A stretch of DNA of 27,224 nt. Origin: Bacillota bacterium (GTDB lineage: Bacteria; Bacillota; Bacilli; Thermoactinomycetales; Thermoactinomycetaceae). Made by a program: the position numbers and the translations under genes. The notes under the pieces were generated by a model that saw nothing but the letters and a program-made list of their open reading frames with translations, had not been told where the DNA came from and made no database searches. The stretch's first letter is position 1. Each line of letters opens with the position of its first letter. The DNA lies in contig JBDKGC010000112.1 in NCBI GenBank assembly GCA_039798385.1, positions 1 to 27,224 of the forward strand, in the 5' to 3' direction. Shown here in pieces: positions 12,469 through 21,534 of this stretch.

Positions 12469-15400
12469 TTATAAAATAGCAATGCGACAACTGTGCGTAT
12501 CATTTAAAGCGATTTCTTTCATTTCAACATGCTGCTCAAATAAAAGATCTTTTAAAAGGACATTGCTAGCAATTAATGATTGGAAATTTGTCAGTGCCGT
12601 TTTAAGCTCTTGTTTGGCATCGATTACTAAGGTGATCCGTTTATCAATTGGCAGGTTGAGTTCTTTGCGATAGTTTTGAATGATGCGAATTGCTTCGCGA
12701 GCTAAACCTTCCTCTTGTAAAGCAGGACTAAGCTTGGTATCAAGTACAAGTACAAGTTGATCTGCTTCTGTTAAGACATATCCCTGTTTTGGTTGATGTG
12801 TTAATAAGACCACGTCGTTAGTAAGTGTTAGCGTGGCTCCTGTTTTAGATGTAAACTCCAATTGTTTGCTGAGTGCTAACGTTTTTCCAGCTTCTTTGTT
12901 ATCTTTTAAAAATGTTTTTAGTTCTTGTATCTGTGCACCAAATTTTGGTCCCGCTACTTTAAGGTTTAAATTAGCAGAGTAGTCAACCAGGTGATGAAAA
13001 TCTTTAGTAAGTGTGATCTTTTTTACATTCAACTCTTCCTTAATTAGTGTAAAGTAAGGGCTAATGGCTAGAGATGGTGTAGCAATTATTAGCTCAGCTA
13101 ATGGTTGGCGAGTGCGAATGCCCGTTTGATTGCGAAGCTTATGGCCTAATTCTACTATTTGCCGTACTAGAGCCATCTCTGTCTCTAATTGTTTATCAAT
13201 TAATGTTTCTTTAGCTTCAGGATAGTTAGTTAAGTGCACACTAGCACCTTTTTTCAAATTAGCATAGATGTCTTCAGTTAGAAAGGGAATGAAAGGGGCT
13301 GCCAGTTGACAGACGGTAGTTAAGACGTGGTACAAGGTGTCATAAGCCTCTTGTTTATCTTGAGATTGGTCGTTACCCCAAAAGCGGTCACGTGAACGTC
13401 GTACATACCAGTTGCTTAGTTCGTCTACAAATGTTTGTAAGTTACGAGTTGGTTTCGAAAAATTATAGGTAGCACTTTCTTTCTGGACAGCAATGATCGT
13501 GCTGGTTAGCCGGGAAAGTATCCATTGATCAAGAAGATTATTTGGGGTAGATGTGAGTGGAGTAGGTTGGTAATTATCTAACAGCGCGTACATGACAAAA
13601 AAGGCGTGTACATTTTGCAATGTATCAATCATTTTTGATTTTGCTTCACTTACCATAGTAGCGCTAAAAGGTTTACTACGCCAGGGTGCGCTATCGACTA
13701 ATAAGGCCCAACGTAAGGCGTCAGCTCCGTATTTTTTAAGCAGTTCTTCAGGATCAATTATGTTACCTTTACTCTTAGACATCTTCTGTCCTTTTGGATC
13801 TAAAATATGCCCGGTAGCTAGCGCTTGTTTAAAGGAGGTCTTACCTGTATAGAGGGTTGCGATGACAAGTAAGGTGTAGAACCAGCCGCGCGTTTGATCA
13901 ATCCCTTCACAGATTATGTCGGCTGGGAAAGTGGCGCTTAGGGGCTTGGGTGTTGTATTGTAATGCTGGGCAAAGGGCATGGAGCCGGCATCAAACCAAA
14001 CGTCAATTACCTCTTTGGTCCGAATCATTTTTCCTCTGCACTCCTGGCAGGTTAAATAGACATCATCAATATATGGTTTATGCAAATCAAGCTTATCTAA
14101 GGTCGAGATTGCCCGGCTTTTTAAGTCGTTTAGGTTTTTAGGTGTATACTCAGCTTTACATTCTTCACAGATCCAGACGTTCAGTGGTGTGCCAAAGTAC
14201 CGATTGCGGCTGATATTCCAATCAATAACGTTTTCTAAAAAATTACCAAAGCGTCCATCTCGTAGATGGTCGGGGTGCCAGGTTATAAGCTTATTATTAG
14301 CTAGCAGCTCTTTTTTAAAGGCCGTTGTTTTAATAAACCAACTTTCAATGGCATAGTAAAGCAGCGGAGAACTGCAACGCCAGCAAAAGGGATAACTATG
14401 CGTAAAGCGTTCTTTGCTAAATAATAACTTGCGGTGTGCTAGGTCTTTAATAATATCGACGTCACACTCTTTAACGAAACGACCGGCCCAGGGTGTTACC
14501 TCTTTGGTATAACAGCCTTTAGTATCTACTAAGTTTAAGAGTGATAAGTTAAACAGTTTAGCGGTTTGATAATCATCCTCCCCATGATTAGGTGCCAGGT
14601 GTACAATTCCAGTACCTTCATCGGCGCTTACAAAGTCGGCGCCGACAATATAATACCCATTTGTGATCGGTTTAAAAGAAAAGAGCGGCTGATATTTTTG
14701 GCCCACCAATTCTTTACCACTATGCAGCGAAAGGACGTCAAAACTACCTTTAAAGATTTTTGGCGCCAGTTCTTTTGCCACAATATAGGTTTGATTTTCA
14801 AAGCGAAGGCGGGCATAGGTTAGGCTAGGATTAACAGCAAGCGCTACATTGGCCGGTAGCGTCCAAGGTGTAGTGGTCCAGGCCAAAAAGATCTCATGAT
14901 TTTCGGGATTAATAAATTTAGCGATCAGGCTTAGGTCTGTCACCTCTTTATATCCCTGTGCTACTTCATGTGAACTAAGGGTAGTTTCACAACTGGGGCA
15001 ATAGGGGCTGATGCGATGTCCGCGGGTAAGTAAACCTTTTTCATGGGCATGTGCTAAGATTTGCCACACTTTTTCAATATAACCATTATCAAATGTTAGA
15101 TATGGGGTTTCTAGATCAATCCAGTATCCTATTTTTTCAGTCATCAGGCGCCACTTTTGCTCATACCGAAAGACGCTTTCGCGGCATTTTTTAATAAAAC
15201 TGGCAACACCATAGGCTTCAATCTCTTTGGTGCCCTGTAGTCCAAGTTCTTTCGCGACGCCAAGCTCAATCGGCAAGCCATGTGTATCCCATCCAGCCTT
15301 ACGCGGGACGTAATAGCCGGCCATGGTCTTGGAGCGGCAGATAACATCTTTTAGGACTCGACCTAAGAGATGACCAATATGTGGTTCGCCATTTGGTCCA

Positions 15401-15540
15401 GGAGGACCATCATAAAAAATAAATGGCTGCTGGTCTTTGCGGTTTGCAGTTGATTTGGCAAAGGTCTGGTCCGTGTGCCATTTAAGAAGCACACGTTCTT
15501 CACGTTTGGTTGGCTCTTCTTTAATGTTTACTTTCTGCAT
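12469..15540 (-). CDS. ileS: Isoleucine--tRNA ligase, type 2
   Basis: FYDGPPGPNGEPHIGH, GWDTHGLP, WTTTPWTLPAN, DWNISRNRY, KMSKSKGN; type-2 C-terminus (EGLAREAIRIIQNYRK) without the C-terminal Cys finger. Start set at ATG 15540 from SD AAGGGGA and the promoter position. Confidence 0.96.
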   Translation of the reverse strand: MQKVNIKEEPTKREERVLLKWHTDQTFAKSTANRKDQQPFIFYDGPPGPNGEPHIGHLLGRVLKDVICRSKTMAGYYVPRKAGWDTHGLPIELGVAKELGLQGTKEIEAYGVASFIKKCRESVFRYEQKWRLMTEKIGYWIDLETPYLTFDNGYIEKVWQILAHAHEKGLLTRGHRISPYCPSCETTLSSHEVAQGYKEVTDLSLIAKFINPENHEIFLAWTTTPWTLPANVALAVNPSLTYARLRFENQTYIVAKELAPKIFKGSFDVLSLHSGKELVGQKYQPLFSFKPITNGYYIVGADFVSADEGTGIVHLAPNHGEDDYQTAKLFNLSLLNLVDTKGCYTKEVTPWAGRFVKECDVDIIKDLAHRKLLFSKERFTHSYPFCWRCSSPLLYYAIESWFIKTTAFKKELLANNKLITWHPDHLRDGRFGNFLENVIDWNISRNRYFGTPLNVWICEECKAEYTPKNLNDLKSRAISTLDKLDLHKPYIDDVYLTCQECRGKMIRTKEVIDVWFDAGSMPFAQHYNTTPKPLSATFPADIICEGIDQTRGWFYTLLVIATLYTGKTSFKQALATGHILDPKGQKMSKSKGNIIDPEELLKKYGADALRWALLVDSAPWRSKPFSATMVSEAKSKMIDTLQNVHAFFVMYALLDNYQPTPLTSTPNNLLDQWILSRLTSTIIAVQKESATYNFSKPTRNLQTFVDELSNWYVRRSRDRFWGNDQSQDKQEAYDTLYHVLTTVCQLAAPFIPFLTEDIYANLKKGASVHLTNYPEAKETLIDKQLETEMALVRQIVELGHKLRNQTGIRTRQPLAELIIATPSLAISPYFTLIKEELNVKKITLTKDFHHLVDYSANLNLKVAGPKFGAQIQELKTFLKDNKEAGKTLALSKQLEFTSKTGATLTLTNDVVLLTHQPKQGYVLTEADQLVLVLDTKLSPALQEEGLAREAIRIIQNYRKELNLPIDKRITLVIDAKQELKTALTNFQSLIASNVLLKDLLFEQHVEMKEIALNDTHSCRIAIL

Positions 15541-15576
15541 TAGATACGTCCCCTTAAAAACTACTTCTTTTAATCT

Positions 15577-15606
15577 ATTATAGTCCTGGCTGTGATAGAT
15601 GGGCAA
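15577..15606 (-). promoter_or_regulatory. sigmaA-type promoter of ileS
   Basis: TTGCCC-N18-TATAAT, giving a ~30-nt leader. Confidence 0.6.
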
Positions 15607-15632
15607 GTGGTTAAAAATAGGCTGGGATCTAT

Positions 15633-15661
15633 AACCTTTAGCCCACCAGTGACATATGCTA
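15633..15661 (+). promoter_or_regulatory. sigmaK-type (late mother-cell) promoter
   Basis: AACC-N16-CATATGCTA matches the B. subtilis sigmaK consensus mACm-N16-CATAnnnTA; 40 nt upstream of the ATG at 15701. Confidence 0.7.
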
Positions 15662-15700
15662 CAGTATAATATTTGCCCTAGGTTGAGAGGTGTTTTAAAA

Positions 15701-17305
15701 ATGCCAGTTTTATCAAAAAGTATAATGGGGGGCAATGCTCCTACCTTCACATCGTCACCAGTTGCAGGTTATACAAAATGTATTGCGGTATCGGCTACTA
15801 ATATGAGCAATGCTTACTTATTAGCCACTACTGACCAAAAGGTTTTTCTTTATTATTATTATACTAATTCAAGTACACCTGGGTGGTTCAATGCGACATG
15901 GGGTGCAACTACTACAAATGAGGCTCCAAGACTTATTACGCGTGAGACTACTAATACCATAAATACTGTGGCTGTTGGTGGTGCTTATTTTGCTTTAGCT
16001 ACGATCAGCGGGGTTGAAGTTTATCTATCTAATGGTGTCAATACCGATGTTACATATATTGATACAATTGCGGTGGCAGGTGGTGCTAGCGCCGTCGATA
16101 TTGCATTTGAGGCAACTAATTTCACTGTGGCATATGCTTCTAAAACATCTCCGTATTTTTATGTTGCTCAATATAATAATCCAACGACTGAGACCAGTCC
16201 TGTTAGTACCAAAAGGTTTCTTACTAATTCATTAGAGGCTGGGGTTCAGGATCTTAGTTTAAGTAAGACAGCGCTTACTGCGGTGTCAGGTTCAGGATAT
16301 GTTTATCTTTACAATAAAAACTATTGGGCTACTGCTTCCCAACCAACAAATGGATATCAGCCAAATACGACAATTACCATCAGCGGAAAGTGGAGCGCTG
16401 TAGCGGTAGATATGTCGTCTAGTTCAGCTGGGTTATTAATTATTGGCGATCCGACAGCAAAAAAAGCCAAGTTATATACTTTAACTGTAGGTTCGAGTAC
16501 TGCTTCATCATCGACGATAACGTATAGTACTGCGACCGATCTTATTCCTGCTACTGTGCCTACGCAATATGGTGTAAGCGTTGATGTTAATACGGCCAAT
16601 GCTACAGCTCTTGTTGGTTCGGTTAGTTCCGTACCCCAGGTTATATTGTTCCGCATTAGTGCAACGGGTATTTCGTCGGAGTCTTTGAAAATTAATCCTA
16701 CCGGTGTAGCAACAAATTCGTATGGAGCACAGGTTGCGCTTAGTGGTCAATATATGGCCGTTAGTGATATAACTAACAAGCAGCCAAATCTTTATTTAAA
16801 TTGCCCTGTCTGTTCTTCTACTACACAAACAACAGGGTTAGAGACTGTGTCTGTTACCTTATATGCCTTTGCCAGTGATAACATAACCTGCGCAACTGGT
16901 GTGGTGCAGGTCTATCTTTGGGATCAGATAACCGGTGATTGTTTTTATCAAACACAAGGTGTCACATGTATTACTACTCCAATGTCAAAGTTAGCAGCAG
17001 CTGAAAATGAAGTAGCTGGCAACTATGTGGTGGTTGGCAGCGCTACTATCAATATTAAAAATGTTCCTATCTCAAACCAAACTTATGCCACGGCGGTCTA
17101 TACTGATGATCCTAATTATACTGCTCCGAGCCAAACCATTAAGTTAAACCCTTTGGCACCGGGACCGGAAGCGTCTGCTTTACAGAAGCTATGCGGTGAG
17201 CCGCAGGTGGTTAAAGTTAAGCGTGTTGTTGATTGGGTGACCTATACGACGCGCAATGAAATACAAATTATCTTAACAGCTAAAGATAAACAGAATGAAA
17301 GCTAA
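15701..17305 (+). CDS. Ser/Thr-rich beta-propeller + Ig-like (Big_3-like) protein without signal peptide; putative spore-surface adhesin
   Basis: Seven blade-like repeats (e.g. INTVAVGGAYFALAT, YGVSVDVN..ALVG, YGAQVALSGQYMAVS), CPVC linker, Ig-like end ATAVYTDDPNY; SD GAGAGG before ATG 15701. Confidence 0.7.
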   Translation: MPVLSKSIMGGNAPTFTSSPVAGYTKCIAVSATNMSNAYLLATTDQKVFLYYYYTNSSTPGWFNATWGATTTNEAPRLITRETTNTINTVAVGGAYFALATISGVEVYLSNGVNTDVTYIDTIAVAGGASAVDIAFEATNFTVAYASKTSPYFYVAQYNNPTTETSPVSTKRFLTNSLEAGVQDLSLSKTALTAVSGSGYVYLYNKNYWATASQPTNGYQPNTTITISGKWSAVAVDMSSSSAGLLIIGDPTAKKAKLYTLTVGSSTASSSTITYSTATDLIPATVPTQYGVSVDVNTANATALVGSVSSVPQVILFRISATGISSESLKINPTGVATNSYGAQVALSGQYMAVSDITNKQPNLYLNCPVCSSTTQTTGLETVSVTLYAFASDNITCATGVVQVYLWDQITGDCFYQTQGVTCITTPMSKLAAAENEVAGNYVVVGSATINIKNVPISNQTYATAVYTDDPNYTAPSQTIKLNPLAPGPEASALQKLCGEPQVVKVKRVVDWVTYTTRNEIQIILTAKDKQNES

Positions 17306-17400
17306 GACTTTAGTCATAATCTTACACTTAGAGTAATATGCTAAAAAGTAAGGTTTTTAAAATATGATAAGTGCTTATAGGTTAGAGAGGGAAAGCTTAT

Positions 17401-17832
17401 ATGTCATTAGCTGTTTTTAAGACAGGGGATATTTGGCCTAATTCTACCACTGAGTTTGCGGGATGGTTTACCTTGACAGGGCGCGAAACTAAAACCATTT
17501 TTACTAGTTGTTGCGGAGCATCTGATCAAGCTATTTTGGCAAGATGTAGTTCTTTTTGCCGGTTAAAAATTTATTGTGGCTTATTGGCATTAACTCTTGA
17601 AGAAGCTGACGGTCCAATTGAGTGCAGAATACGTTTTTTTTATAATGGGCAACCAATTCGGCTGGACTGTACACAGAATAATCTGTCAGTTTTACCAGCA
17701 CAAGCAAAAATAGTAACGTTATCAATGCCCTTTGACAAAATTGAATTTTATTCTTATATTCCCGCGACTAAAGATACTCCTACTACAGTCAAAGGGCGTT
17801 ATCATATTACTGTTGCTGTAGGTACATCTTAA
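17401..17832 (+). CDS. Cys-rich beta-strand protein, putative Ena/DUF3992-like spore appendage subunit A
   Basis: 143 aa, 7 Cys, no signal peptide; paralog of the next gene; SD GAGAGGG. Confidence 0.6.
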   Translation: MSLAVFKTGDIWPNSTTEFAGWFTLTGRETKTIFTSCCGASDQAILARCSSFCRLKIYCGLLALTLEEADGPIECRIRFFYNGQPIRLDCTQNNLSVLPAQAKIVTLSMPFDKIEFYSYIPATKDTPTTVKGRYHITVAVGTS

Positions 17833-17854
17833 AGTAAGTAAGGAGGAACTATTA

Positions 17855-18289
17855 ATGTCGGAGTTGGTGGTTTTTAGAACGCCATATGATGCAGATGCCG
17901 GTTTTTTTGAATTACCTTTAGGGGCAACTAAGACAATTTTTGAAAATTGTTGTTTAAGTACTGTGAAAAATTTTAGTCAGCAGCAGCAATCACCATCTAC
18001 AAGTTGTAATTTTAAAGTTTATTGTGGCGTAATTACTATAAACCACGAATATGAACGCGATAATAATAGTCGTATTTTGATGGCACTTTTTTATCTTGGT
18101 ACACCAGTACAACTTGATTGTGCACCAGATGGAATTACAATTCAAAATGGTCACGCTCATACTTTTTTAATCTCAAGCCCATTTGATAAAATTACACTTA
18201 CTGCCATCGCATCAGACTCTGGTGGGGAATCTGCAGCTGTTAAAGGAAATTTTTTCTACTCCTTAGGTATTAGCACTTCTGGTTGTTAA
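17855..18289 (+). CDS. Cys-rich beta-strand protein, putative Ena/DUF3992-like spore appendage subunit B
   Basis: 144 aa, 6 Cys; shares TKTIFxxCC, K[IV]YCG, FYxGxPxxLDC, SxPFDKI and VKG with 17401..17832; SD AAGGAGG. Confidence 0.6.
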   Translation: MSELVVFRTPYDADAGFFELPLGATKTIFENCCLSTVKNFSQQQQSPSTSCNFKVYCGVITINHEYERDNNSRILMALFYLGTPVQLDCAPDGITIQNGHAHTFLISSPFDKITLTAIASDSGGESAAVKGNFFYSLGISTSGC

Positions 18290-18312
18290 ATAAAAATAAA
18301 AAAATTAACGAT

Positions 18313-18342
18313 GAATAAAAACGCTCCTGATCGAACAAACTA
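18313..18342 (+). promoter_or_regulatory. sigmaG (possibly also sigmaF)-type forespore promoter of spoIVB
   Basis: GAATA-N18-CAAACTA fits GHATR-N18-CAWAHTA; spoIVB is sigmaF/sigmaG-transcribed in B. subtilis. Confidence 0.72.
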
Positions 18343-18361
18343 TTTTTGAAAGGAGCGTTTT
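18318..18361 (+). promoter_or_regulatory. RBS-sequestering / terminator-like hairpin
   Basis: Perfect 11-bp inverted repeat AAAACGCTCCT (18318-18328) / AGGAGCGTTTT (18351-18361), plus inner stem TCGAA/TTTGA; the right arm contains the spoIVB SD. Confidence 0.7.
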
Positions 18362-19414
18362 ATGTTAAAAAAAAATAAAAAATCAAGGCTGCTGTGGCTA
18401 AAGTTGGTTTTAAATCTTTGTTTTTTTCTGATTCTAAATAAAACAATTTTAGCGGCAGCATACGTTGTTCCGGGTGGTCAATCGATTGGGGTTAAGATGC
18501 GTTCCGAAGGGTTAATGGTTGTCGGTTATCATCGACTTGATACTGATAAAGGTCATGTTTCTCCGGTGGTTAACTCGATTAAGGTTGGCGATACATTAAT
18601 TAAAATAGATGATAAACCCTTAAAAAGTATTCAAGAATTCCTTTTAGCTGTAAATAAAGCTGGTAAGGAACAAGCTAGCTTAAAAATCACGTTTATCCGG
18701 AATCAAGCAGTGTATGAAGTGGTAGTTCAACCTGTTTATAATCTTGTGGACCATGCGCATCAACTAGGGCTTTATTTACGGAATACGGCCATGGGAATTG
18801 GTACACTAACTTTTATTGATAACGAACATGAAATTTTTGGTGCTTTAGGACATGATGTCAAGGATGTCTCAACGAATAAAACTTTAACGGTTGGTGAAGG
18901 ACAGATCGTTCGTTCTAATATTAATGAGATTGAAAAGAGTAAAATTGGCGATCCTGGCGAAAAAAAGGGGTTGTTTGTAGAGGAAGGTAAAACAGTTGGC
19001 TCAATTACCAAAAATACACCCTTTGGTATTTTTGGATCGATTCGAAGTAATTGTTTTGATCAGGATGAGCAACAGCCATTACCAATTGGTAGTACTAAGG
19101 ATGTAAAGGTCGGACCAGCCATAATTCGAACCGTAGTGGAAGGGAATAAAGTAGAGGAGTTTGATATAGAAATAGTTGAAACGTCACCCGCCAAAAAAAT
19201 GACTTCCAAAGGTTTAACAATTAAAGTGACTGATCCCATACTGCTTAAAAAGACGGGTGGGATTGTGCAGGGGATGAGTGGTAGTCCTATTATCCAAAAT
19301 GGGCATTTAATAGGTGCCGTAACACATGTTTTAGTAAATGATCCGACCCAAGGGTTCGGGGCTTATATTGAATGCATGTTAAAAGAAGCTGGCTTATGGG
19401 AGCAACATCAATAA
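18362..19414 (+). CDS. spoIVB: SpoIVB signalling peptidase (S55)
   Basis: N-terminal hydrophobic segment, VVPGGQSIGVK, PDZ (IKVGDTLIKID), GIGTLTF, ALGHD, GGIVQGMSGSPIIQNG, GAVTHV. Confidence 0.96.
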   Translation: MLKKNKKSRLLWLKLVLNLCFFLILNKTILAAAYVVPGGQSIGVKMRSEGLMVVGYHRLDTDKGHVSPVVNSIKVGDTLIKIDDKPLKSIQEFLLAVNKAGKEQASLKITFIRNQAVYEVVVQPVYNLVDHAHQLGLYLRNTAMGIGTLTFIDNEHEIFGALGHDVKDVSTNKTLTVGEGQIVRSNINEIEKSKIGDPGEKKGLFVEEGKTVGSITKNTPFGIFGSIRSNCFDQDEQQPLPIGSTKDVKVGPAIIRTVVEGNKVEEFDIEIVETSPAKKMTSKGLTIKVTDPILLKKTGGIVQGMSGSPIIQNGHLIGAVTHVLVNDPTQGFGAYIECMLKEAGLWEQHQ

Positions 19415-19420
19415 TAAAAG

Positions 19421-20758
19421 GTGGGATGGGGAAAGGTGCTTTCAAAAGAATTGTTAAAAATTTTAAATAGTGTGTTAGCAGCTCTGAAACTTGATTTGGC
19501 TGACTGTACGGAACAGGAACGGGATAAGTGGAAAATATATTGGCAGGCCTGTATTAAATATATGGAAGGTGAGCAGCTGCAAAAAAAAGAAGCAACAAAA
19601 CTAGCAGGAAACAAAATAGAGGAAATTAGTTTATCAGTGCTAGAATTTAATAAATTTAGAAGCGGTATGGGGTATTTAACACTTGGGTTATGGCCCCAGG
19701 CGGCGGAACAGTTAAGGGACTTATTACACAGAAACCCTGGTTTTTATTTGGGCCGCATATATTTAGCATTAGCTTTATTTTATCAGGTGAAATATTTAGA
19801 AGCAAAAAAAGAACTAAATTTTTTATTATCAACCAAGTTTGAACCTGTTGCGTACCATCTATTGGGGTGCATCGCGCTAAATGAAAAAAACTATAGTCAA
19901 GCAAAAGCATGTTTTAGCAAAGAGCTACAGCTTGTTAGAGTGCCATCAAAAGAAGCTCTATTTAATTTGGCACTCTCACATTATATTCTAAATGAATATA
20001 ACGAAGCCGATAAATATTTTAGACTTGTTTTGCAGAAAGAAGCCGGTTGTTTTGAGACAATGAATTTTTTGGCCGAGATTGCTCGGCTGCAGGCTAAGTG
20101 GGAAGGCGTGAAGAGATGGCGAAAAGCTGCTTATGACAGGCAGTTTAGTTTGCAAATAATTGAGCAATTAGCCTATGACTATGAAGAGATGGGCAACTTT
20201 GAACAAGCTTATTATTGGTATCGATTTTTGCTAGATTTAGATGTTAACAATTTAAAGGCTTATCATGGATTAATCTGGACCTTAGTTCAACTCAATCAGA
20301 TAGACATGGCTAAAGAGTGGTTAAGAAAAGCACGTGATATACATGGTAATGTGCCGCGCTTACGATTTTTATCAGCTTGGATTATGTTATTAACCGGGGA
20401 GTTAAGCATAGCCGAACGATTTATTATGCAAGGTTTACAAGAAGAAGAGCGCCCTATCTGGCTGGCTCTTGAAAGTAGATTGTGGTCTATGAAGGGCTAT
20501 GTGAATTTTGGCTTACAGCTTGATAAATGCGAACACAATTTTTTGCGGGCCTTTGCTAGGTATCAAGCTGGTTGGCAAGCTTTAAATGCTTATAGTTTAG
20601 ACGAAGCAATTCTGAACTTTAGACAAGCAAATGTTCTAATGCCTTTATGGCGCGATCCATTACACTTAGAAGGCGCAGTCCACCTTATTAATGGTGATTT
20701 ACTCCTTTCTAATCAGTGTTTTCAGGCAATTGGTTTCAACAGTAAACATATAACTTAA
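19421..20758 (+). CDS. Tetratricopeptide-repeat protein (start may be GTG 19436)
   Basis: Several TPR-like units: AYHLLGCIALNEKNYSQAKACF, ALFNLALSHYILNEYNEADKYF, IIEQLAYDYEEMGNFEQAYYWY, AYHGLIWTLVQLNQIDMAKEWL. Confidence 0.85.
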   Translation: MGWGKVLSKELLKILNSVLAALKLDLADCTEQERDKWKIYWQACIKYMEGEQLQKKEATKLAGNKIEEISLSVLEFNKFRSGMGYLTLGLWPQAAEQLRDLLHRNPGFYLGRIYLALALFYQVKYLEAKKELNFLLSTKFEPVAYHLLGCIALNEKNYSQAKACFSKELQLVRVPSKEALFNLALSHYILNEYNEADKYFRLVLQKEAGCFETMNFLAEIARLQAKWEGVKRWRKAAYDRQFSLQIIEQLAYDYEEMGNFEQAYYWYRFLLDLDVNNLKAYHGLIWTLVQLNQIDMAKEWLRKARDIHGNVPRLRFLSAWIMLLTGELSIAERFIMQGLQEEERPIWLALESRLWSMKGYVNFGLQLDKCEHNFLRAFARYQAGWQALNAYSLDEAILNFRQANVLMPLWRDPLHLEGAVHLINGDLLLSNQCFQAIGFNSKHIT

Positions 20759-20760
20759 TC

Positions 20761-21534
20761 TTAAACTTGGCAAGTTAGAGGAACAGGATTTTGTGTAAAC
20801 CAGAGGGTTAAGATTCTAGCAATGCTGTATACGGCATTGCTCATTGCTAGCTGAAGAGGAACTGCAACTATTGAGTGCCATGTTTCTGGCTGATTGTTGG
20901 AGTAAGCCTGTTTTGATGCTGGAGTTAAAATTTGGGGTCCTAAGTCATGAGAAGACCAGGCAAGGTTCAGCACCTCGTCTTGTATGTTGGTATTAAGTGG
21001 TGGTTTGATAAAGCTATTAACATCAGGTGCAAGTCGCGAATGAAGTTGCTTTACAAACGTTTCGATTGCGGGGTGAAAGCCTATTGGTAATGAGATCGCT
21101 GTAAAATTTACGGCATGTAGGGGTATGCCTATATCAGCTAAAAAATGCAAGGCTAAGCCGAGGTAATACGTAGCTTGTGTAAAATCACAATTATTCCAGT
21201 AGGTGGTTGCTAAATTAAGTAGATAAAAAAAGTAGTCCTTAGCGGTGTCAACAAAAGGTATATAAGAACGCCCTGTTTCGGGGTTATAGAAATGGCCCGT
21301 ATAAGTTCCTAGTTGTTTATATTGCATTTTTTCATCAGCATCACGTGAGCCTGCTGCGAGCTGATCCCAATTCTTTTGAATAACCGTTAAGGCTTGCTGT
21401 ACTAGAGGTGAGGGGGAGCTTAAGCGTAGTAAGTCAATAGCCTTATAAATTAAAAACAGATGTGTGTTAGTCTGTAATTCCGTAGCAATAGGCCCGGCAT
21501 CCCAGCTCACATATAATAACGGATTATAGTACAT
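20761..21534 (-). CDS. Zinc-dependent phospholipase C family protein (B. cereus PC-PLC-like), no signal peptide
   Basis: W...NTH, ADE, GHFYNPETGRSYIPF, YYLGLALHFLADIGIPLHAVNFT, GFHPAIE correspond to PC-PLC W1, H14, D55, H69, H118, D122, H128, H142, E146. Confidence 0.9.
   Translation of the reverse strand: MYYNPLLYVSWDAGPIATELQTNTHLFLIYKAIDLLRLSSPSPLVQQALTVIQKNWDQLAAGSRDADEKMQYKQLGTYTGHFYNPETGRSYIPFVDTAKDYFFYLLNLATTYWNNCDFTQATYYLGLALHFLADIGIPLHAVNFTAISLPIGFHPAIETFVKQLHSRLAPDVNSFIKPPLNTNIQDEVLNLAWSSHDLGPQILTPASKQAYSNNQPETWHSIVAVPLQLAMSNAVYSIARILTLWFTQNPVPLTCQV

Follow-up and report, generated by a model that had tools for sequence, protein, structure and literature searches.

Two small adjacent genes of an uncultured freshwater spore-former (genome ~1 Mb, 39% GC) are best explained overall, on a judgement slightly better than even, as encoding the subunits (here A and B) of a spore-surface polymer, these subunits representing a very divergent and lineage-restricted branch of the Ena (DUF3992) jellyroll proteins. 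Ena pili are recently discovered, extremely robust protein fibers, known so far from the DUF3992 and DUF4183 families. According to the mechanism envisaged here, A and B would be produced in the mother cell at a late stage, under a sigmaK/sigmaE-type promoter, and would self-assemble via β-sheet contacts on the spore surface to yield a fiber, a ring or a layer, the assembly being presumably locked by disulfides after lysis of the mother cell.

The two genes are preceded by that of a 534-aa protein, and all three sit between ileS and spoIVB in the window, i.e., the whole stretch of 27,224 nucleotides that was analyzed (Table 1). The first-pass annotation had described three co-oriented genes with good SDs and products lacking signal peptides and transmembrane helices, a description with which the ORF, SD and hydropathy checks fully agree. 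The SD sequences are GAGAGGTG (8 nt ahead of 15701), GAGAGGGA (ahead of 17401) and AAGGAGGA (ahead of 17855), an alternative ATG of the first ORF at 15656 being without SD; the intergenic gaps at the locus are 95, 22 and 72 nt, and terminator-like sites are absent from 15300-19600. None of the three proteins has a 19-residue window above a Kyte-Doolittle value of 1.43 or an N-terminal hydrophobic core, and signal peptides and membrane helices are absent from all of them. The flanking genes are ileS, spoIVB, yunB and ftsK-type genes, with spoIVB directly downstream of the A–B pair, and no phage genes are found among them. The two small genes had also been regarded as paralogs, which they are; they lie side by side in a sporulation neighborhood, their products sharing 30% identity over 128 residues (BLASTP E 3e-20).

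Table 1. Features of the three-gene locus (positions are those of the window)
Feature	Position	Strand	Evidence
sigmaK-type promoter-like motif AC-N17-CATATGCTA	15634..15661	+	read directly; pattern scan and shuffles
orphan 534-aa protein	15701..17305	+	ORF and SD; Pfam/NCBIfam negative
subunit A, 143 aa, type II clade	17401..17832	+	AlphaFold2, VIA-align, Foldseek, ESM Atlas, hhalign
subunit B, 144 aa, paralog of A	17855..18289	+	BLASTP, ESM Atlas model, family tree

Structure prediction indicates that the fold of A and B is an Ena-like jellyroll, as had been supposed for both small proteins, AlphaFold2, VIA-align, Foldseek and the ESM Atlas all pointing in this direction. The AlphaFold2 model of subunit A (pLDDT 77.8) is an eight-stranded single-domain jellyroll superposable on the solved Ena subunits, and its best VIA-align matches are Ena1B (Z 11.5), Ena2A (11.4), Ena3A (11.0) and Ena1C (10.2), the chains in question (7a02, 9i0y, 8pdz and 9t3p) being the top four of the 48,161 representative PDB chains; 101-104 of ~110 residues are aligned with an rmsd of 2.2-2.9 Å. 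Foldseek likewise returns Ena1C, Ena2A and Ena3A among the top PDB matches of A and a DUF3992 protein as the best AFDB cluster, and in the ESM Atlas independent models of A and B are both nearest to a PF13157 cluster, that of B (pTM 0.68) with a TM of 0.60/0.74. Prediction of an A+B complex yielded a score of 0.13 vs a mark of 0.32, a result that speaks in favor of binding as little as it speaks against it.

The relation to DUF3992 claimed in the first-pass annotation holds as remote profile homology but not as membership of that family by HMM. Indeed, no Pfam or NCBIfam model matches A or B (Pfam at E ≤ 1) and the PF13157 HMM (cut-off 22 bits), when run at E ≤ 10, retrieves not one of the 19 sequences of the family; the same HMM detects two other gene pairs in the same genome. 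On the other side, hhalign comparison of the family profile (19 sequences) with DUF3992 (14 sequences) gave a probability of 90.9% (score 42.7, E 1.2e-6) in an alignment of 68 columns that covers only the C-terminal two thirds, from strand D to strand I, whereas reversing the alignment gave 0.2% and none of 30 block shuffles exceeded 18%. When compared singly with the family profile, the canonical Ena-like proteins of the same genome scored 17.7% (in the same register) and 0.1%, and the profile matched no PDB sequence, including any Ena chain. We read the A/B family as a new variant within the Ena superfamily. A branch that retains the jellyroll while shifting its covalent cross-linking motif would illustrate how a principle of assembly can be altered and, since the family escapes current HMMs entirely, would enlarge the sequence space to be searched for spore appendages.

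The genome contains nine family paralogs, two at the locus described here and seven in a tandem array divergent from spoIVA, so that together with the canonical proteins its Ena-like genes number 9 + 4. In half of its members the C-terminus is a Cys-Pro/Thr tail, and the family tree displays two conserved subtypes, with A and B in the same clade (support 98/97). Elsewhere the family is very sparse: word-indexed homolog search with A retrieved only A itself, a related-locus search with A gave no match, only ~6 related clusters were found among 1.84 billion representative proteins, and the family was found neither in 400 genomes of the class nor in 60 relatives, with the exception of one weak match broken by stops; no family match derived from a named NCBI genome. 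A metagenomic relative of 752 aa, P0017, is an Ig-repeat protein carrying the family domain at its C-terminus, an architecture known from the Ena anchors ExsL (PMC11362473) and F-Anchor (PMC12357932), which by analogy may be taken as a precedent for a polymer; its N-terminal repeats scored 17% against DUF3992, a hint only. Of the genes in this very small genome, about 1% belong to the family, which suggests a central place for the spore surface in the life of the organism. The IleRS of the latter is at best 54% identical to that of a Paenibacillus, and an assignment to Pasteuria found no confirmation, P. ramosa having 1.8 Mb and 31% GC and P. penetrans 46% GC (PMC13233619) vs the 39% GC of the present genome, where a single collagen-like ORF was found.

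As to the sporulation link, the B. subtilis sigmaK consensus is AC-N16/17-CATAnnnTA, and a sigmaK-type motif had been noted ahead of the first gene. The motif is there, AC-N17-CATATGCTA fitting the consensus and ending 39 nt ahead of the ATG at 15701. The pattern is not rarer than chance (3 matches in the window vs 3.4 ± 2.0 in shuffles; genome-wide density 0.099 per kb, both strands), and its weight lies in its position only, the chance of its falling on the right strand in the 160-nt intergenic space being roughly 1%; a sigmaK dependence of the locus would thus be suggested by a single consensus match. The CATAnnnTA element is located 25-45 nt upstream of four of the seven leading family genes vs 11% of the leading ORFs genome-wide (binomial P 0.004, in a post hoc test), and an intact sigmaK gene (sigK) is encoded in the genome. 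Eight of the ten genes downstream of other sigmaK motifs are without Pfam family, and the remaining two have sub-threshold matches only. A T-box leader of ileS overlapping the promoter was considered and rejected in view of the lack of an Rfam match, and none of the stretch was found in the metatranscriptome of the same study. [quoted passage not shown]

The 534-aa protein is an orphan. Its ESM Atlas model (pTM 0.64, pLDDT 0.61) is nearest to FG-GAP_2 propellers (TM 0.54-0.60 over residues 8-370, up to 453) and seven blade-like segments, seen by eye only, recur about every 50 residues, suggesting that the N-terminal ~370 residues probably constitute a 7-bladed FG-GAP-like β-propeller. The fold is not established because the AlphaFold2 model, made from the single sequence, failed (pLDDT 33.9, unusable), and neither BLASTP nor hhalign self-comparison revealed internal repeats. 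Compared to the FG-GAP_2/integrin-alpha-like propellers (PF14312), most bacterial representatives of which are exported, the 534-aa protein is without signal peptide. Cysteines are frequent in its C-terminal ~165 residues (C368, C371, C397, C414, C423 and C498). No Pfam or NCBIfam model matches it, Pfam even at E 1, its gene is single copy in its own genome, and searches of 5.8 billion proteins and of the 60 relatives returned only the protein itself; whether taken whole or as its C-terminal 155 or 105 residues, it gave at most 0.4% in hhalign against the family and DUF3992. The adhesin role assigned to it in the first-pass annotation, in place of a collagen-type tip or anchor, found no backing in the gene-neighborhood survey, the gene being absent from the vicinity of family members elsewhere. 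Since neither homologs nor an Ena-type domain could be detected for the protein, the case for a tip or anchor is therefore one of adjacency.

Its gene is probably co-transcribed with those of A and B, and the protein may be accessory, e.g., an adhesin or anchor, this being the weakest step of the whole reading. Somewhat short of an even chance, but clearly to be reckoned with, is the possibility that the 534-aa gene has no functional connection with A and B and encodes an independent protein, perhaps of the spore, that happens to lie upstream; the appendage-like unit would then consist of the A–B pair only, which may have a promoter of its own in the 95-nt gap. The near-match AATATGCTA inside this gap and the orphan status of the protein, for which no homolog was found anywhere and no Ena-like domain by hhalign, speak for such independence, whereas the shared strand, the lack of a terminator-like site, the Cys-rich C-terminal part and the existence of an Ena–propeller fusion in a relative argue against it. 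This fusion (L019:523-1809, 428 aa), from an organism of the same order, consists of a canonical PF13157 domain (E 4e-11) with N-terminal Cys-Cys and a 7-bladed propeller of YVTN/lactonase type and would resemble the present locus in combining an Ena-type domain and a seven-bladed propeller in one system; at the locus, on the other hand, the putative propeller is of a different type and encoded by a separate gene. There was only one instance of this fusion, no PF13157 domain being present among the best 120 matches of a search dominated by ordinary YVTN propellers.

Like A and B, the subunits Ena1A, Ena1B, Ena2A, Ena3A and Ena1C of the B. cereus group have an eight-stranded jellyroll core, a length of ~110-145 aa and no signal peptide, are encoded by adjacent paralogous genes of an endospore-former and carry a Cys-Cys pair and two single Cys. 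It is in the placement of the cysteines that the two differ. In Ena a flexible N-terminal connector of ~15 residues carries the Cys-Cys motif (Pradhan et al., 10.1101/2020.08.21.260141). Unlike Ena, the A/B family has no such connector and starts on the first strand, the conserved opening being M-[GS]-L-[TA]-V-[LF], with residue 1 of the model of A being aligned with residue 15 of Ena1B, so that the first Cys is that of an invariant internal Cys-Cys after the third strand. This pair and two conserved single Cys make up the family set, at residues 37-38, 53 and 90 in A and 32-33, 51 and 89 in B, the latter having an additional C-terminal Cys at 144; the conserved motifs are TIFxSCC, CxF, GxPxxLDC and FDxI. 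Concerning the acceptor cysteines of strands B and I, the strand-I Cys, which follows a conserved Tyr/Phe, is kept in only 1 of the 19 sequences in the hhalign register, and strand B lies outside the alignment. In the preferred reading the internal Cys-Cys would stand in for the N-terminal connector of Ena1/Ena3, the number of cysteines being equal.

From secondary structure and alignment, the conserved cysteines are all located within or beside the loops C-D and E-F, at the same end of the sandwich, and with this topology intramolecular disulfides could therefore form. This raises the question of whether A and B are Ena-superfamily spore proteins that build no appendage and form instead a ring, a cap, a layer of the coat or exosporium or another parasporal structure, their cysteines being joined within the same molecule as stabilizers. 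We consider this unlikely, yet by no means negligible: the fold evidence is identical in the two cases, the Ena-specific connector is missing, the four conserved Cys cluster at one sandwich end and Ena1C, which forms nonameric rings, is among the best matches of A. Against it, the many tandem paralogs in two subtypes resemble the major and minor subunits of a fiber, and the Ig-repeat fusion of P0017 resembles the anchor of a fiber system.

Generic jellyrolls are only ~2 Z units under the Ena chains in the comparison with subunit A (satellite-virus capsids Z 9.5; PirA Z 9.0-9.4), Foldseek E values against viral capsids (~1e-4) are comparable to the Ena ones, although TM and rmsd are poorer, and phage hypothetical proteins occur among the ESM Atlas neighbors of A and B. 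That the two proteins are unrelated to spores, being generic jellyrolls such as PirA-like toxin parts, lectins or domesticated viral capsid-like proteins, is nevertheless very improbable, for by Z the first four places are all taken by Ena chains, which also have the best TM and rmsd, the homology seen in profiles is specifically to DUF3992, there are neither a PirB-like partner nor phage genes, and the second array lies beside spoIVA. A PirA-like binary toxin in particular was rejected, the Z of PirA being below that of all four Ena chains and the neighbors being a propeller-like gene and spoIVB, with no PirB-like gene.

The most ambitious form of the polymer reading, to which we assign a low probability, would see in the locus a third Ena-type pilus architecture, with cross-links through the internal-loop Cys-Cys, two subunit types distinguished by the presence or absence of the C-terminal Cys-Pro tail and a signal-less propeller adhesin replacing the collagen-like tip. 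If this were true, the apparatus, with 9 + 4 Ena-like genes in a streamlined genome, would make spore attachment or transmission an area of major investment for a bacterium that is probably host-dependent. In the cases of Ena1B, Ena3A and F-ENA the decisive evidence came from recombinant self-assembly in E. coli, an approach directly feasible for A and B as well despite the uncultured state of the organism.

The F-ENA system (DUF4183; PMC12357932) shares with A and B small signal-less subunits whose N-terminal segment is short, conserved and hydrophobic, and its anchors are multidomain proteins with a subunit-like domain, as is also the case of P0017. The A/B family differs in that it has no DUF4183 match and an N-terminal motif that is not M-P-ψ-ψ-x-P-ψ, and the F-ENA entries 9HZE, 9I65 and 9N0B are outside the 50 best fold matches of A. 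Unlike the Ena loci, that of A and B has no adjoining gene for a collagen-like tip.

The first-pass annotation had described the two small proteins, hereafter A and its paralog B, as subunits resembling those of the endospore appendages (Ena), and this is borne out as far as fold and remote homology are concerned. Modelling of A by AlphaFold2 with an alignment of nine paralogs yielded a nine-stranded structure (pLDDT 77.8, pTM 0.73) for which, among 48,161 PDB representatives, the first four ranks are occupied by Ena1B (7a02, Z 11.5), Ena2A (9i0y, Z 11.4), Ena3A (8pdz, Z 11.0) and Ena1C (9t3p, Z 10.2), these superpositions covering 101–104 residues at 2.2–2.9 Å, with generic jellyrolls such as satellite panicum mosaic virus (9.5) and PirA (9.4) ranking below. 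When the same model was compared with the PDB by Foldseek, Ena1C came first and Ena2A gave the best TM (0.61/0.74); viral capsids reached E-values similar to those of Ena, with poor TM and rmsd. The best AlphaFold-DB cluster for A is a DUF3992 (PF13157) protein and, for the independent models of the ESM Atlas, the nearest structural cluster is the “Endospore appendages core domain” (TM 0.65/0.79 for A and 0.60/0.74 for B).

No Pfam or NCBIfam model matches A or B, and the family profile found nothing among the PDB sequences. An hhalign comparison of this profile with 14 DUF3992 sequences (the PF13157 matches from the genome to which the window belongs and from three relatives) gave a probability of 90.9% (E 1.2e-6, score 42.7) over 68 columns corresponding to strands D to I, the N-terminal third being unaligned; in the controls, the reversed alignment reached 0.2% and 30 block shuffles at most 18%, with scores not exceeding 25. 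From these sequence comparisons we conclude that the family of A and B belongs to the Ena superfamily as a remote branch, outside PF13157 as now defined.

A and B are paralogs with 30% identity (E 3e-20), and a further tandem array, divergent from spoIVA, brings the family genes of this ~1-Mb genome to nine; in the array, a Cys-Pro end is found in five of the seven proteins and is absent from the other two. Of the 19 matches returned when 1.84 billion representative proteins were searched exhaustively with an HMM of the nine paralogs, four are repeat proteins matched spuriously and nine correspond to the query paralogs, which leaves six true relatives, every one derived from a metagenome or an unlabelled run. 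Neither 60 relatives nor 400 genomes sampled across the class yielded a member of the family. The premise that the system is undescribed thus holds, since no HMM finds A or B and the family is extremely rare. In the tree, A, B, two genes of the array and four metagenomic proteins form a clade (support 98/97) devoid of a C-terminal cysteine tail, the remaining proteins ending in Cys-Pro/Thr. The tailed and tail-less types occur together in this genome and on one metagenomic contig, a co-occurrence that recalls, by analogy, the pairing of major and minor, or of A and B, subunits.

Invariant or nearly so in the 19-sequence alignment are the Cys-Cys of TIFxSCC (residues 37–38 of A), CxF before the next strand (Cys 53), GxPxxLDC (Cys 90) and FDxI. 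In Ena1B, a 15-residue N-terminal connector bears Cys10-Cys11, which bond Cys24 of strand B and Cys109 of strand I in two subunits of the previous helical turn (10.1101/2020.08.21.260141). Proteins of the new family lack this connector and open with a hydrophobic strand that is conserved, M-[GS]-L-[TA]-V-[LF]; residue 15 of Ena1B aligns with residue 1 of the A model. The strand-I cysteine of Ena is kept in only one of 19 sequences. The Cys-Cys pair is internal and opens a loop (residues 36–54 of A) that is variable and modelled with low confidence; of the two conserved single cysteines, one closes this loop and the other is in the following loop, at the same end of the sandwich. The cysteine count is that of Ena, namely one Cys-Cys pair and two single cysteines, but the geometry must differ, and these cysteines may pair within a subunit or between subunits.

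Features of the three-gene locus and of related loci
Feature	Location	Strand	Remarks
ileS	real start ~15540	minus	upstream flank of the three ORFs
534-aa gene	15701-17305	plus	ORF
A, 143 aa	17401-17832	plus	ORF
B, 144 aa	17855-18289	plus	ORF
spoIVB	18362-19414		downstream of B; PF05580 E 3e-78, TIGR02860 388 bits
Seven paralogs of A/B, 125-148 aa	contig C98:392-3534 (L006, L009), same genome	minus	one tandem array, divergent from spoIVA
Canonical DUF3992-like pair	L010:1306-1764 and 2050-2520 (contig C17, same genome)		Cys-rich N-terminal connectors
Canonical DUF3992-like pair	L011:513-1019 and 1192-1620 (contig C29, same genome)		Cys-rich N-terminal connectors
Ena-propeller fusion, 428 aa	L019:523-1809, genome of the same order	minus	

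Reading of the ORFs confirmed three co-oriented genes, each preceded by a Shine-Dalgarno sequence at the usual distance and followed by gaps of 95, 22 and 72 nt, whose products contain neither a hydrophobic N-terminal core nor a membrane-helix-like stretch; a search of 15300-19600 revealed no terminator-like hairpin. An 11-nt inverted repeat at 18319-18352 (AAAACGCTCCT ... AGGAGCGTTTT), with the spoIVB ribosome-binding site inside its right arm, could act on read-through transcripts of the upstream genes. The ileS frame (12469-15750, minus) stays open for 70 codons upstream of its likely start. The extension, which runs over the promoter region and the initial codons of the 534-aa gene, is an open-frame artefact and not a longer protein. 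The surroundings are ordinary chromosomal (ParA-like ATPase, malic enzyme, YunB, NAD kinase, ABC exporter, ileS, spoIVB, FtsK/SpoIIIE-type translocase, DEAD-box helicase), without phage or mobile-element genes, and the GC content of the window is that of the genome.

As to the sigmaK-type promoter that had been proposed, the motif is present and well placed, AC-N17-CATATGCTA at 15634-15661 fitting the B. subtilis sigmaK consensus, but shuffling yields the pattern just as often (3 matches in the window against 3.4 in shuffles; 98 in the 0.99-Mb genome). Because the pattern is no rarer than in shuffles, the site is a well-placed consensus match and no proof of a promoter. No T-box or other Rfam element overlaps it, and a search for a T-box leader upstream of ileS was negative. 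An intact sigK, scoring above the cut-off at 306 bits, is present together with a sigE-like gene, and tandem family paralogs adjoin both spoIVB and spoIVA. Furthermore, four of the seven leading family genes, one of them in another organism, have CATAnnnTA 25–45 nt upstream, as compared to 11% of the leading ORFs of this genome (binomial P 0.004, in a post hoc test).

The 534-aa protein, encoded by a single-copy gene, matched itself alone in a word-indexed search of 5.8 billion proteins and in the 60 relatives, and has neither a Pfam match nor, by self-comparison, internal repeats. The closest matches of its ESM Atlas model (pTM 0.64, pLDDT 0.61) are seven-bladed propellers of the FG-GAP_2 type, aligned over residues 8–370 (TM 0.54–0.60), and seven blade-like segments can be recognized by eye (27–53, 87–111, 120–158, 182–206, 231–261, 290–319 and 341–367). 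The C-terminal 165 residues hold six of its seven cysteines, including CPVC at 368–371, and resemble neither the new family nor DUF3992. A precedent for the association of an Ena domain with a propeller is offered by the fusion listed in the table, seen once and not described in the Ena literature cited here, in which PF13157 (residues 6–103, E 4e-11) is followed by a seven-bladed YVTN/lactonase-type beta-propeller. No propeller gene accompanies family members on three other contigs, and a function of the 534-aa protein as tip adhesin or anchor, suggested by adjacency, is possible, though less likely than not.

Ena proteins are made in the mother cell (PMC12921279) and, like them, A and B lack export signals. 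One gene of each canonical DUF3992-like pair exceeds the PF13157 cut-off of 22 bits (25.3 and 23.7), and a perfect sigmaK-type motif precedes the second gene of the C17 pair by 175 nt. The large gene after the C29 pair resembles, by eye, a family-2 glycosyltransferase. P0017, a 752-aa metagenomic relative from an unlabelled public run (L014:8001-10259), begins with two repeats of ~105 aa that bear a weak DUF3992-like signal (17%), continues with four Ig-like repeats (PF13927) and ends in a domain of the new family. Such an arrangement suggests an anchor or tip adaptor and is shared with known appendage anchors, namely ExsL, composed of CotZ and an Ena core (PMC11362473), and the F-Anchor proteins, which carry DUF4183 domains (PMC12357932). 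The support for A and B as a spore polymer is indirect, consisting of fold and homology, tandem paralogs, lack of export signals, sigK and the sigE-like gene, CATAnnnTA, P0017 and the canonical pairs, and a sigmaK-controlled appendage system bearing a propeller adhesin is advanced as a hypothesis.

The assembly (987 kb, 127 contigs, 39% GC, 86% complete by marker genes) encodes spoIVA, spoIVB and yunB besides the sigma factors, its family relatives having 2.5–4.2 Mb; if real, this size would place it among the smallest genomes of endospore formers and suggest host dependence. The stretch was found in two freshwater metagenome runs, its likely source, and three identical 151-nt contigs occur in a freshwater-sediment metagenome of a separate study; no RNA runs containing it were found.

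Twenty-two intergenic sigmaK-type motifs of this genome have a downstream ORF, for instance at C40:5277-5732, C88:1565-2599 and C114:3535-3927 (L044-L054). Of the ten ORFs compared with Pfam, eight lack an assigned family and two gave sub-threshold matches only. Some are rich in Cys or Tyr and hence candidate lineage-specific coat proteins. A Zn-dependent phospholipase C without signal peptide is encoded in the window at 20761-21534 (minus; PF00882, E 1.8e-9), and the product of C89:818-1570 (L049), which has no Pfam match at E <= 0.01, resembles it at the N-terminus; since the latter gene sits behind a perfect sigmaK-type motif, both may be mother-cell or spore-associated enzymes.
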